Source of the DNA: a virus
Taxonomy: Duplodnaviria; Heunggongvirae; Uroviricota; Caudoviricetes
Virus record (IMG/VR): IMGVR_UViG_2703718673_000017
Length of the DNA: 9,706 nt
Reading direction: 5' to 3' (one strand)
Part shown: piece after piece, positions 2,824 to 7,955 of the stretch
How the letters are laid out: every line of letters starts with the position of its first letter
How positions within the stretch are numbered: the stretch's first letter is position 1
Position numbers and translations under genes: made by a program
Notes under the pieces: generated by a model
The model's database searches: none
What the model saw: the letters and a program-made list of their open reading frames with translations, nothing else
Told to the model about the DNA's origin: nothing

Positions 2824-3024
2824 GGAAATAAAGGGATAACGATGATAGTTTGAGAAAAACAGAAATAACACTTTTGTGGCAAAGCATGGTGCCGGGTGCC
2901 TCCCGGTGAATTCAGTACCAGCACCTGAATCCGCGATTATCCCATATACCTGGTTGCTGATTGCCCCTCCGCACAGGGGGATTCGCCATGCAGTAGTATT
3001 TTTAATAAACAGTAAACAAAAAAA

Positions 3025-3422
3025 TCAAGCATTATGCAGGCTGTTTCTTTTTATCACCGGCCACAGCAATACCACAATGCCGCAGACCAGCCCCCCATCC
3101 GCCAGCACCGACATGATTCTNNNNNNNNNNNNNNNNNNNNNNNNNNNNNNNNNNNNNNNNNNNNNNNNNNNNNNNNNNNNNNNNNNNNNNNNNNNNNNNN
3201 NNNNNNNNNNNNNNNNNNNNNNNNNNNNNNNNNNNNNNNNNNNNNNNNNNNNNNNNNNNTAATTTCTGACGTAAACGCGGACAGCGCTGGCTGATTACGC
3301 AGTACCTGTTCGATCTTCGCTTTCTAGGAAGCCTCACATTCACCATCTGCACAGGCCACCAGGTATGCGGCGTTAATCACCGCCTGTGCCAGATCGCGTT
3401 TCTCAAACTTTCCTTTTTCCGG
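3025..3422 (-). pseudogene. Degraded cargo gene at the Q-proximal moron site: TerB-like fragment with in-frame amber, split by the N gap, plus a C-terminal hydrophobic fragment
   Basis: Minus frame 3422..3327 encodes PEKGKFEKRDLAQAVINAAYLVACADGECEAS, then in-frame TAG (3326..3324), then KAKIEQVLRNQPALSAFTSEI up to the gap. No ATG in this frame after the upstream TAA (3425..3423). The A..A.ADG...E.AKIE pattern resembles TerB-family domains. After the gap, 3120..3025 encodes ...IMSVLADGGLVCGIVVLLWPVIKRNSLHNA*. The frame relationship across the gap cannot be determined. Confidence 0.3.
3121..3259. other. Assembly gap (139 N)
   Basis: Run of n characters. Track ORFs spanning it (translated as X) are artefacts. 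Confidence 0.99.
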
Positions 3423-6261: not shown

Positions 6262-6331
6262 TTAAGTGCGGGTGCGTTGAGGATGCCTGACACATCAGCG
6301 GTGGCGAGGGATTTCTCCCCCGCCTGGTCTC

Positions 6332-6487
6332 TTACTCCTCAGGTTCGTAAGCTGTGAAGACAGCGACCTCCGTCTGGCCGGTTCGGATTCGTACCTCGCA
6401 GAGGTCTTTCCTCGTTACCAGTGCCGTCACTATGACGGTTAAACAGATGACGATCAGGGCGATTAACATCGCCTTTTGCTGCTTCAT
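6332..6487 (-). CDS. hok: Hok-family type I toxin (HokC/Gef, HokD/RelF-like), 51 aa
   Basis: MKQQKAMLIALIVICLTVIVTALVTRKDLCEVRIRTGQTEVAVFTAYEPEE matches the Hok/Gef family (compare Gef MKQHKAMIVALIVICITAVVAALVTRKDLCEVHIRTGQTEVAVFTAYESE). SD AAGGAG 8 nt upstream of ATG 6487..6485. Confidence 0.9.
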   Translation of the reverse strand: MKQQKAMLIALIVICLTVIVTALVTRKDLCEVRIRTGQTEVAVFTAYEPEE

Positions 6488-6544
6488 AACCTGCTTCTCC
6501 TTGCCTTTCGGCGCGTAAGAGGCTAACCTACGTTTGTGAAGCAT
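6332..6544 (-). CDS. mok: Mok-like in-frame N-terminally extended reading frame overlapping hok (70 aa)
   Basis: Track ORF with ATG 6544..6542, extending hok by 19 codons in the same frame, as in chromosomal mokC/hokC. GAGG lies 9 nt upstream. Confidence 0.6.
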   Translation of the reverse strand: MLHKRRLASYAPKGKEKQVMKQQKAMLIALIVICLTVIVTALVTRKDLCEVRIRTGQTEVAVFTAYEPEE

Positions 6545-6610
6545 AGATTGGGCCTCAGATTAATGTTAAGCGTCTTGCAGGACGCGTAATGTTAACTGGG
6601 GCTTTTCTCT
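6540..6610 (+). ncRNA. sok: Putative Sok-like antisense RNA (boundaries approximate)
   Basis: Plus strand, antisense to the mok translation-initiation region. Candidate promoters: TTGTGA (6534-6539) with ATTAAT (6559-6564), or TTGCCT (6501-6506) with TAACCT (6524-6529). A 7-bp closing stem (6552-6558 with 6596-6602) is followed by a T-rich run 6603-6610. Ends are inferred by analogy to R1 hok/sok and are not verified. Confidence 0.35.
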
Positions 6611-6662
6611 GTCTGCCTTACGGTGGCATGCCCGAGGCAGACAGCCTCAAGCACCCGCAGCA

Positions 6663-6690
6663 ATTCTACTTAACTCTCGCTTTACAGCAA
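6663..6690 (-). promoter_or_regulatory. Putative hok mRNA promoter
   Basis: Minus strand: -35 TTGCTG (6690..6685), 16-nt spacer, -10 TAGAAT (6668..6663). The predicted start near 6656 (GGGUGCUUGAGGC...) resembles the R1 hok mRNA 5' end (GGCGCUUGAGGC...) as I recall it. Confidence 0.45.
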
Positions 6691-6730
6691 ACCGTTTTGC
6701 CCGATATGGGAATTCCCATACGGAATGAAT

Positions 6731-6835
6731 TCAGTTCCCCAGGCGCTCCATCAAAAACACAACCAGGCAGTAAACACCCACAACAGCAATAACAGCCAGA
6801 GCGCCTTCCATTACCAGTGAAATATCATCCGACAT
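6731..6835 (-). CDS. Small hydrophobic peptide, 34 aa, single predicted TM helix (not in ORF track)
   Basis: ATG 6835..6833 preceded by SD GGGAGGG (6845..6839, 3-nt spacer). Translation MSDDISLVMEGALAVIAVVGVYCLVVFLMERLGN, stop TGA 6733..6731. Same strand as all other genes. Confidence 0.4.
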   Translation of the reverse strand: MSDDISLVMEGALAVIAVVGVYCLVVFLMERLGN

Positions 6836-6870
6836 ATTCCCTCCCTTGGTGTGAATCCCGGCGAACGTTT

Positions 6871-6948
6871 TTACCCCCACCGACAAATAACATATACTAG
6901 AAAAGCAATAGCTATAGCAACGCCTGCAAATGCATCTGGCCGGCTCAT
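6871..6948 (-). CDS. Small hydrophobic peptide, 25 aa, single predicted TM helix (not in ORF track)
   Basis: ATG 6948..6946 overlaps the stop of the 190-aa gene (ATGA). SD GGGGGAGAA (6960..6952). Translation MSRPDAFAGVAIAIAFLVYVICRWG, stop TAA 6873..6871. Confidence 0.4.
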   Translation of the reverse strand: MSRPDAFAGVAIAIAFLVYVICRWG

Positions 6949-7517
6949 TGGTTCTCCCCCTGTGTCGCTTCTACTGCGATCTGACTGGCGTATTCGTTAA
7001 TGGTAACGATAAGTTCTTGCTCGGCCTCATCCAGACAACTACCGATACCTCGCCTGTCCACTTCAGAAGCATCGAAATCTGCACGAAGCCTGGCGACCTT
7101 CAGGATTGCGGACAACACCTCATCAGGGATTGCCGGAGAGTTGGTTGACGTTTCCGAGATTATCCGAAAATTATTGGTTGACGAACCCTTATTTTCCCGA
7201 AAGTTTCCAGCCTGAAGCATGGCGGCGCGGTGACACCAGATAATCCAGCCAAGCGCCATATCCCATGCCATGTATTCTCTATCGCCATTTTTTGCTCTGC
7301 GGCGATCTACAGATTCCCCGAAACGCTTCTCCATAAATAATTCATAGGCTGCCCGTTCATCCGATACTGATGCCAGTGATGCCAGTGATGCCAGTGCAAT
7401 TTTTAATGCGGTAAGCATGTTGTTTTGATCTTCATCGAGTCCGAACGGTATTTCATCCCGTGATGACTCAATTCCGGTAATCGTGTTCTGTAGCCATTCT
7501 TTGGTTAATTCAGTCAT
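6945..7517 (-). CDS. Hypothetical protein, 190 aa, with internal ASL tandem repeat
   Basis: Track ORF with ATG start. No family recognised. Contains the 9-bp tandem repeat encoding ALASLASLASVS. Preceded by a 126-nt AT-rich intergenic region with an SD-hairpin-AUG arrangement. Confidence 0.7.
   Translation of the reverse strand: MTELTKEWLQNTITGIESSRDEIPFGLDEDQNNMLTALKIALASLASLASVSDERAAYELFMEKRFGESVDRRRAKNGDREYMAWDMALGWIIWCHRAAMLQAGNFRENKGSSTNNFRIISETSTNSPAIPDEVLSAILKVARLRADFDASEVDRRGIGSCLDEAEQELIVTINEYASQIAVEATQGENQ
7368..7394. repeat. Perfect 9-bp tandem repeat (tgatgccag x3) inside the 190-aa CDS
   Basis: Plus strand 7368-7376, 7377-7385 and 7386-7394 are identical 9-mers. In frame on the minus strand, encoding an (ASL)n tract. 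Confidence 0.85.
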
Positions 7518-7643
7518 TTTTCACTACCGCCCTTTCGGGCGGTCTCCTGATGTTCTGAGGGTGCAGGAATCCCTCCGGTTAAGGATTTAATAAAAATCAT
7601 TTCTGATTTAAATTTTCAGTGTTTAGTTGTTGGTTTATAGCCT

Positions 7644-7955
7644 TTATGCTTCGGCCTTATTTCTCAGCCATACACAAACAGGACCATCTTCGGTGTCATG
7701 TATCGAACCGATAAACCATCCCTCACCTTCTGGTCGCTCAGGTTCCCATGCTGAAATATCAGGGCCATCTGCGTCCAGATTAAAATCATCTTCATCCATA
7801 CTACGGATAGCCCACTGAAGATTATTTTTCTCCATCCAGGCGTTAAACTCTTCCGTTGAAATATATTCCCGACCATCACAGAATTTTTCATATTCAGGAT
7901 GCGTCCAGCAGCCATATTCATTACGTTCCACTGGCATTTCTTTAATTACGCTCAT
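7644..7955 (-). CDS. Hypothetical phage protein, 103 aa, acidic
   Basis: Track ORF. ATG 7955..7953 overlaps the stop of the upstream 62-aa gene (ATGA). G-rich SD (GGGGGG) 3 nt upstream. No confident family assignment. Confidence 0.65.
   Translation of the reverse strand: MSVIKEMPVERNEYGCWTHPEYEKFCDGREYISTEEFNAWMEKNNLQWAIRSMDEDDFNLDADGPDISAWEPERPEGEGWFIGSIHDTEDGPVCVWLRNKAEA

Follow-up and report, generated by a model that had tools for sequence, protein, structure and literature searches.

A 9,706-nt stretch of DNA from a virus of the Caudoviricetes (IMG/VR record IMGVR_UViG_2703718673_000017), referred to here over its whole length as the window, carries three open reading frames (ORFs) just upstream of a hok/sok locus. 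The first encodes a 190-amino acid (aa) protein, and the two that follow, here called pep1 (25 aa) and pep2 (34 aa), each encode a peptide with a single predicted transmembrane (TM) segment. An earlier note on this DNA had taken the three ORFs for one unannotated accessory module, perhaps toxin-like or abortive infection-like. Comparison with related loci shows the region to be, as judged from its sequence, a mosaic of two evolutionarily independent units lying side by side. Unit 1 consists of an early-region gene of the EaA/Ea22/DUF551 family (the 190-aa gene) together with pep1. Unit 2 is pep2, which, like its relatives, lies directly upstream of a hok promoter or the remnant of one. The anatomy of the region is far more secure than its function.

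Organization of the locus

The features of the region are the following (positions in the window).

7544-7548 and 7526-7543, minus strand: Shine-Dalgarno (SD) sequence AGGAG and GC hairpin, respectively, before the AUG of the 190-aa gene (fold z = -3.05).
6945-7517, minus strand: the 190-aa gene, encoding hypothetical protein WP_000137952.1 / ECs_2756.
7368-7396, no strand: 9-nt tandem repeat TGATGCCAG, 3.2 copies, within the 190-aa gene and encoding ASL repeats.
6954-6960, minus strand: SD sequence of pep1, GGGGGAG (anti-SD duplex -9.4 kcal/mol).
6871-6948, minus strand: pep1, 25-aa single-TM ORF; its ATG (6948-6946) overlaps the TGA of the 190-aa gene (6947-6945) in the sequence ATGA.
6866-6876, minus strand: left copy of the 11-nt direct repeat GGGTAAAAACG, found by comparing loci L136 and L003 (numbers with L denote compared loci); it holds the pep1 stop codon.
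6839-6847, minus strand: SD sequence of pep2, AAGGGAGGG (anti-SD duplex -11.8 kcal/mol).
6731-6835, minus strand: pep2, 34-aa single-TM ORF, WP_001278460.1 / ECs_2755; this frame begins at an internal ATG of a 51-aa ORF with a TTG start.
6701-6723, no strand: palindrome with a perfect 16-bp core, TATGGGAATTCCCATA, at 6705-6720, between the pep2 stop and the hok -35.
6693-6702, minus strand: right copy of the direct repeat, GGGCAAAACG, degenerate in the window, from the comparison of loci.
6663-6690, minus strand: inferred hok promoter, read from the sequence, with -35 TTGCTG (6685-6690) and -10 TAGAAT (6663-6668).
6332-6656, minus strand: hok/sok locus, with the leader at 6482-6656 (Rfam), mok at 6332-6544 and hok at 6332-6487.

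The whole region thus reads on the minus strand in the order 190-aa gene, pep1, pep2, palindrome, hok promoter, hok/sok. Most of the layout given in the earlier note is borne out: three ORFs on the same strand, a strong SD and a hydrophobic stretch in both small ones, an ATGA arrangement suited to coupling pep1 to the 190-aa gene, an SD-hairpin-AUG structure upstream, and a 16-bp palindrome and hok promoter downstream. The Rfam sok/hok-leader match begins at 6656, in agreement with the inferred position of the promoter. The description "unannotated" holds for pep1 only. The 190-aa gene and pep2 are both annotated by RefSeq/PGAP as hypothetical, and have the tags ECs_2756 and ECs_2755 in strain Sakai. 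The Sakai counterpart is prophage Sp14, with ECs_2754 (mok/hok), ECs_2755 (pep2) and ECs_2756 (a 187-aa allele of the 190-aa gene). Novel-gene tables for EDL933 list mok (X040) and a 74-aa ORF (X041) at this place, and neither peptide (PMC4765031). ECs2755 and ECs2756 are not mentioned in the main text of any paper found by literature search.

Positions 6300-7700 of the window are 100% identical to several O157:H7 genomes (e.g. Xuzhou21) and 99.4% identical to most others, because one copy of the 9-nt repeat differs. The alleles of 573 and 564 nt found for the 190-aa gene among O157 strains represent this copy-number variation. These identities hold for the region of interest only, the stretch identical to Xuzhou21 and Sakai Sp14 being 6300-7700; the half of the window on the side of the Q antiterminator differs from their arrangement. 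Taken as a whole, the 9.7-kb window was matched by any one complete E. coli genome over 82% of its length at most (identity 95.6%).

Coding capacity of the two small ORFs

The best 17-residue Kyte-Doolittle mean is 2.66 for pep1 and 2.95 for pep2, with hydrophobic cores of 17-19 residues. The window has 110 ATG-initiated ORFs of 20-60 aa, of which only four join a strong SD to such hydrophobicity; apart from pep1, pep2 and hok there is just one. The co-occurrence of the two properties in pep1 and pep2 exceeds chance. The other ORF, of 60 aa at 443-625 on the minus strand, begins MRFVQLILLYFCTVVCTLYLVSGG, has an SD of -10.8 kcal/mol and may encode a small membrane protein. It lies downstream of a 645-aa ORF (773-2710), presumably the gene of the SASA-family esterase found among the window's matches.

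Both small ORFs are genuine protein-coding genes, as indicated by signatures of purifying selection, an in-frame indel and, for pep2, ribosome profiling (Ribo-seq). The ratio of non-synonymous to synonymous polymorphism (pN/pS) is 0.37 in the pep1 frame, compared with 0.84 and 1.26 in the remaining sense-strand frames. The corresponding values for pep2, from eight representative alleles of the pep1-pep2 cassette, are 0.29, 0.87 and 1.23. Elsewhere a low pN/pS was seen only in the antisense frame that shares the wobble position, as expected. Against the most diverged copy, L066, both genes have a synonymous excess (binomial p = 0.003 for pep1; 12 synonymous and 8 non-synonymous differences, p = 0.001, for pep2). 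Of the 123 cassette loci, 122 have an intact pep1 ORF; its 25- and 27-aa versions differ by a 6-nt in-frame indel.

The larger pep1 family, comprising 60 alleles from 210 loci, gives the same picture. On a minimum spanning tree, substitutions at codon positions 1, 2 and 3 number 38, 30 and 119. When the count is confined to the 16 codons free of constraint from the search pattern, the numbers are 37, 25 and 75, and the codon changes are 58 synonymous and 59 non-synonymous. pep1 is under purifying selection. Of the checks that the earlier note had named for the small ORFs, conservation gave a positive result for both and ribosome occupancy for pep2: the frames are kept, with a third-position excess and an in-frame indel, and published Ribo-seq data are positive for pep2 (ribosomal coverage value, RCV, 6.79 for ECs2755).

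The pep1 family

The pep1 consensus is MTWPEAFTTVGIAMAVALVVYSICRWG. W3, A6, F7, C24, R25 and W26 are invariant, these being positions that the search pattern itself fixed; G11, Y21, I23 and G27, which lie outside the pattern, are identical in 59 of 60 alleles. A tblastn search with the 27-aa variant found 93-99 phage records. Carriers include 933W, Min27, BP-4795 and many other Shiga toxin (Stx) 1 and 2 phages, P1-like phage-plasmids, and the virulent Vequintavirinae phage Av-05. A single pep1 allele was found by blastn in 1645 of 5426 complete E. coli genomes (~30%). The exact 25-aa sequence is absent among ~15 billion predicted proteins, and 27-aa variants are called there in only a handful of genomes. 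Neither pep1 nor pep2, variants included, has a match in Pfam, NCBIfam, PADLOC or PHROGs. pep1 belongs to a widespread family missed by Pfam, PHROGs and PGAP, even in 933W. The 933W homologue (L260, NC_000924.1 58832-58909), MTWPEAFANVGTVMAVVLVVYSICRWR, is unannotated, ATGA-coupled to ST933Wp77, and sits directly upstream of sokW/mokW/hokW. A hok leader follows pep1 within 600 nt in 151 of the 210 loci, 933W among them.

The position of pep1 on the stop codon of another gene is kept while that gene changes. In all six loci recovered by tblastn or blastn without an ATGA criterion, pep1 is unannotated, starts in an ATGA on the upstream stop, and is preceded by a purine-rich SD-like run. Among the genes that precede pep1, at least four C-termini unrelated to one another are seen (PEPPQEVNQ, GLISVEDVLR, NIEQEVNR and KKKGMNQ). 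In K-12, where the DUF551 gene yfdS is followed by yfdT, the annotation, read without a scan of the sequence, has no pep1-sized gene after yfdS.

A sigma-70-like site, TTTACC-17-TATACT (9/12), occurs at 6870-6898 on the plus strand, directed antisense into pep1 and overlapping its stop codon. One such 9/12 site is seen at pep1 and 1.8 are expected by chance in the region, so that it may be fortuitous. The stretch 6870-6898 is nearly invariant among cassette copies.

The 190-aa gene

The 190-aa protein is, by its module content, best described as a member of the EaA/Ea22/DUF551 mosaic phage family that lacks the DUF551 domain. Alignments divide it into module A (residues 1-46), module B (50-103), a low-complexity linker, and module C (~130-186). 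A homologue search returned 3501 clusters, mostly named "DUF551 domain-containing protein", with residues 1-137 in common at 75-97% identity. In longer relatives that have module C, a second linker and then DUF551 follow, and in many others DUF551 comes straight after the first linker. DUF551 is gone from the window protein, and only the last codons are still homologous (...TQGENQ-stop versus ...PPQEVRQ-stop). Several PHROGs match the protein, segment by segment; no match was found in Pfam (DUF551, PF04448, included), NCBIfam or PADLOC. An AlphaFold2 model is all-helical with a mean predicted local distance difference test score (pLDDT) of 53; the linker between the modules, into which the ASL tandem repeats (7368-7396) fall, is of low confidence and probably disordered.

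The Ea22 family has been described as mosaic, with domains of portable character (PMC10834534). The lambda Ea22/EaA/DUF551 proteins have their N-terminal and middle modules in common with the 190-aa protein, and the modules also occur in the EaA/Ea22-region genes of Stx phages. The window protein differs from this family in lacking DUF551, and its gene belongs to the rightward early region, ahead of hok/DUF968/RusA/Q, and not to the exo-xis region. A pro-lysogenic effect of Ea22 is the sole known function of the family. The earlier note recognized none of the three proteins and held that a clear database match placing the 190-aa protein in a known nin-region family without associated peptides would speak against its module; such a place now exists in part, in a mosaic family that is itself uncharacterised.

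The hairpin before the 190-aa gene brings the SD close to the AUG. It is conserved, and the SD-hairpin-AUG arrangement recurs in a diverged relative, L100. A 28-aa upstream ORF (7514-7600, minus strand) forms an ATGA with the start of the 190-aa gene and spans the SD-hairpin. It was rejected as probably noncoding, because an SD is missing (+0.4 kcal/mol) and L100, although it keeps the hairpin, does not keep the overlap.

pep2: distribution and expression

pep2 is recorded on about a thousand contigs and falls into 24 clusters, every named one of which is from E. coli. An exhaustive HMMER search found six pep2 representatives in 1.84 billion proteins, and two scans found no relatives in 185,579 species-representative genomes. 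These searches make pep2 an orphan restricted to some E. coli prophages. The pep1-pep2 cassette is present in 732 of 5426 complete E. coli genomes, at a median of three copies, and most copies are >89% identical. Distant relatives were found only in phages Evi, Tritos and mEp460_ev081 (50-54% identity, E ~0.06-0.08, alignable as DNA). Their pep2-like ORFs are unannotated, have their own AGGAGG SD, and precede the start codon of hok by ~215 nt; the three upstream contexts differ, and pep1 is absent from all of them. That pep2 is a degenerate hok paralogue was considered and rejected, since BLASTP of pep2 against Hok yields no alignment.

pep2 is translated in Sakai lysogens. In lysogeny broth (LB), ECs2755 has an RNA level of 132.6 reads per kilobase per million (RPKM), a footprint RPKM of 885, an RCV of 6.79 and a coverage of 0.95 (PMC5597208, S2 table). 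The mean RCV of 250 short annotated genes in the same study is 1.55, and XECs145, the pep2 paralogue in prophage Sp6, has an RCV of 4.35 (PMC5597208). The RNA RPKM of pep2 is 133-168, compared with 7-9 for the upstream same-strand genes ECs2758 and ECs2760, a difference of ~15-fold (PMC5597208). The pep2 RNA must then come from a nearer promoter or be selectively stabilized. Thus, like a moron, pep2 is expressed from a repressed prophage, with the caveat that reads may map to several paralogous copies.

The palindrome and the hok junction

pep2 and the palindrome together form a ~173-nt indel between the direct repeats GGGTAAAAACG when compared with loci in which pep1 leads to hok (L136, pPE4, 933W). 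Loci without the pep2-palindrome segment have a single copy of GGGTAAAAACG, a pattern that suggests either insertion or deletion by microhomology. In most relatives (e.g. L003, L134, L139) the palindrome is perfect over 22 bp (CGATATGGGAATTCCCATATCG), is centred on an EcoRI site and immediately precedes the hok -35; in the window one nucleotide of it is deleted. The hairpin is not a classical terminator, because it has no U-tract. Candidate roles for it are a hairpin at an RNA 3' end, a site for protein binding and a hotspot of recombination. Compared with Evi-type loci the palindrome is a ~34-nt insertion, and it is absent from the pep2-like/hok loci of Evi, Tritos and mEp460_ev081.

The palindrome marks the junction where differing cargo genes (pep2, paa/adfO) meet hok. 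In PPompW phages the palindrome and only the last two codons of pep2 are found beside paa/adfO. In L134 (1656-2402) the adhesin gene paa/adfO stands upstream of hok. In Qin, as the earlier note had stated, relB-relE lie directly upstream of hokD, with the peptides absent. Its proposal of a cargo-exchange site is supported by these loci and by two others with different genes past the palindrome. In L005 (519-2374), a phosphoadenosine phosphosulfate (PAPS)-reductase/IbrB-like pair (IbrA/B-like) stands in the place of hok, after a promoter remnant. In L066 (5598-7607), a truncated hok leader is followed by a DNA cytosine methyltransferase gene that replaces the hok coding region. A further ORF, unassigned, lies beyond the L066 methyltransferase gene and might encode a restriction-enzyme partner.

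Adjacency of pep2 to the hok region is nearly constant. Of 113 pep2 loci with enough flanking sequence, 104 were scored as having hok next; in the nine others the promoter or leader of hok is still there, five having a hok region that is variant or truncated and four no more than a promoter remnant. The cargo junction is at the palindrome and hok promoter, and pep2 goes with the hok-side block and not with the 190-aa gene.

Elsewhere in the window, the late-gene, Q-proximal part contains an Rfam match to the STnc100 small RNA (2851-3017, minus strand; 94 bits versus a gathering score of 47). A run of 139 N at 3121-3259 lies, by homology to Xuzhou21, near a TerB-family gene and a tRNA cluster.

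Comparison with known systems

Type I toxins (Hok/Gef, TisB, Ibs, ShoB, Ldr) are, like the two peptides, very short, hydrophobic, single-TM and encoded by prophages or plasmids, and the peptides adjoin a hok/sok locus. By size and hydrophobicity (Kyte-Doolittle 2.66 and 2.95) both peptides resemble such toxins. Neither peptide matches a known toxin family (Hok_Gef, Ldr, TisB, Ibs and others): Pfam and NCBIfam searches at E <= 1 gave only noise. No antisense RNA is recognized, and Rfam matched no family over the peptide region, the sok/hok leader alone being found in the locus. PADLOC gave only noise for all three proteins. TisB-type pore formers carry charges within the TM segment, whereas the TM segments of pep1 and pep2 are uncharged. 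Type I toxins are translationally silenced, whereas pep2 is strongly translated in unstressed lysogens; the repression expected of such a toxin is not seen (RCV 6.79 in LB versus the mean of 1.55). Both ORFs are intact in nearly all copies, with almost no inactivating mutations.

Another group of small proteins offers a closer likeness. AcrZ, MgtS, KdpF, CydX and DicB are also 25-50 aa long, have one TM helix, and are expressed in normal growth. The first four act by binding larger membrane proteins. DicB, a small protein of a prophage, is reported to give protection against phage through inhibition of inner-membrane receptor proteins (PMC6832061). None of the five is homologous to the peptides, and the likeness is an analogy of action, not membership. 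The uncharged TM segments, the near-universal intactness and the high translation of pep2 liken the peptides to these accessory proteins rather than to type I toxins.

By its position, pep1 resembles the second gene of termination-reinitiation pairs: it has a 4-nt ATGA overlap, with the SD inside the 3' end of the upstream gene, and this arrangement is kept at all pep1 loci examined. It differs from typical coupled pairs in being unusually short (25-27 codons) and in keeping the overlap while the upstream C-terminal domain is swapped; the coupling is proposed from this arrangement of signals. pep2 in turn resembles morons such as lambda bor/lom and HK97 gp15, in its ~15-fold RNA excess over two early genes and in being a discrete ~173-nt indel. 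It differs from classical morons in being far smaller and in lacking a recognizable promoter or intrinsic terminator of its own.

Proposed mechanism and alternatives

The favored reading, to which a probability of roughly 0.6 is given, is that of two evolutionarily independent units whose peptides are small accessory inner-membrane proteins, nontoxic at their native level. Ribosomes that end on the upstream gene would re-initiate at the pep1 ATG, and the dosage of pep1 would then follow that of the upstream EaA/DUF551-type gene. pep2 would be expressed in the lysogen largely apart from the repressed early operon. Both peptides are predicted to be single-pass inner-membrane proteins with an N-out/C-in orientation, because the acidic residues are N-terminal, an Arg follows each TM segment, and Trp residues flank the pep1 helix. 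Most likely, both would bind and modulate a larger membrane protein, of the host or the phage. They are probably neither self-sufficient toxins nor partners in a three-gene defence system.

Several points count against this picture. pep1 (78-84 nt) is below the shortest ORF (93 nt) listed in the Ribo-seq study, which implies a minimum of ~30 codons. Several near-identical copies of pep2 exist in Sakai, and shared reads may inflate or blur its Ribo-seq values. The single line of evidence for independent pep2 expression is the RNA contrast with two upstream genes, and a consensus scan found neither a sigma-70 match upstream of pep2 on the minus strand nor an intrinsic terminator. The near-constant adjacency of pep2 and hok may reflect a functional link with the toxin, which accessory proteins of independent units would leave unexplained. 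Finally, small hydrophobic peptides are often toxic when overproduced, and a toxin role under induction is conceivable.

The alternative that survives best is that pep2 (perhaps with pep1) belongs functionally to the hok locus, either as a Hok-modulating peptide (antiholin-like or a helper) or through read-through transcription that tunes hok/sok. A hok promoter or leader stands just downstream of pep2 in all 113 loci with enough flank, the relatives in Evi, Tritos and mEp460_ev081 keep their place before hok, and pep1 is soon followed by a hok leader in most of its loci, including that of 933W. Since pep2 stays linked to hok in three different contexts even where protein identity falls to 50%, a tie between pep2 and Hok is the most interesting reading left. 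It is nevertheless unlikely. Plasmid R1 and other well-studied hok/sok systems need no protein partner, and hok occurs mostly without pep2, its region matching 4757 genomes versus 732 for the cassette. pep2 also persists without an intact hok: four loci, of which L005 with its IbrA/B-like genes is the annotated example, keep only a promoter remnant, and in L066 pep2 stands before the truncated leader and the methyltransferase gene. pep2 has no sequence similarity to Hok, and physical linkage at a recombination boundary could account for their co-inheritance. A bolder claim, that pep1 is a universal "trailer" of EaA/DUF551-type proteins in temperate and virulent coliphages and, at the same time, that pep2 modulates Hok as an antiholin-like antidote or helper, is a speculation with long odds against it.

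The single cargo module of the earlier note, toxin-like or abortive infection-like and made of the 190-aa protein and both peptides, is now very improbable. The three genes are consecutive on the same strand, the ATGA overlap joins pep1 to the 190-aa gene, and the site holds relBE, restriction-modification, IbrAB-like or paa cargo elsewhere. The distributions of the three genes differ, however, and are largely independent, and the genes do not make up a single functional unit: 120 of the 210 pep1 loci lack pep2, pep2-like ORFs are found directly before hok with no pep1 beside them, and modules of the 190-aa protein are present within EaA/Ea22-region genes of 182 phage records, none of which has the pep1-pep2 cassette. 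The domain content of the upstream partner of pep1 varies as well. The suggested toxin or abortive-infection role finds no counterpart in PADLOC, Pfam, NCBIfam or the toxin families, pep2 is efficiently translated in healthy, untreated lysogens, and copies of the supposed module have almost no inactivating mutations.

About as improbable is a -1 ribosomal frameshift at the ATGA that would join pep1 to the protein encoded upstream and so anchor an isoform of this EaA/DUF551-type protein in the membrane. The pep1 frame is indeed -1 relative to the upstream frame, the overlap is kept with any upstream C-terminus, and phages use programmed frameshifts, as in lambda G/GT. No conserved slippery heptamer was found before the junction (CGCCAATGA, GAATCAATGA, TTTACGATGA), however, and the conserved ATG with an SD-like purine run 6-10 nt upstream suits re-initiation better than frameshifting.

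Least credible of all is that the small ORFs are nonfunctional and owe their conservation to recent descent or an overlapping nucleic-acid element: although cassette copies are mostly very similar, the 3' half of pep1 and the spacer are nearly invariant in nucleotides (L066 excepted) and a weak promoter-like sequence (6870-6898) faces pep1 from the opposite strand, the third-position and synonymous excess is confined to the sense frame, save for the expected echo in the wobble-sharing antisense frame, the indel is in frame, start, stop and SD are conserved across 60 alleles, pep2 has Ribo-seq support, and no Rfam family lies in the region.

Significance

Part of this was already known: the 190-aa gene and pep2 are annotated, evidence for pep2 translation is public, and small hydrophobic prophage proteins without an assigned role are a familiar kind. 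For annotation practice, the locus illustrates that what adjacency alone suggests to be a "module" may be a place where independent mosaic units meet.

Should pep1 prove to be translated, well-studied phages such as 933W and other Stx phages, as well as ~30% of complete E. coli genomes, would contain a conserved gene that has been overlooked. Such a gene would also provide a natural model for a very short ORF that is kept on a stop codon while the gene upstream is shuffled. In pep2, prophages of pathogenic E. coli have a membrane protein that is expressed and restricted to their lineage, and because it lies so constantly beside hok, a possible link of such a small protein to a type I toxin can be tested directly. 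If pep2 modulates Hok, phage hok loci would be three-component systems rather than purely RNA-controlled type I toxin-antitoxin systems.

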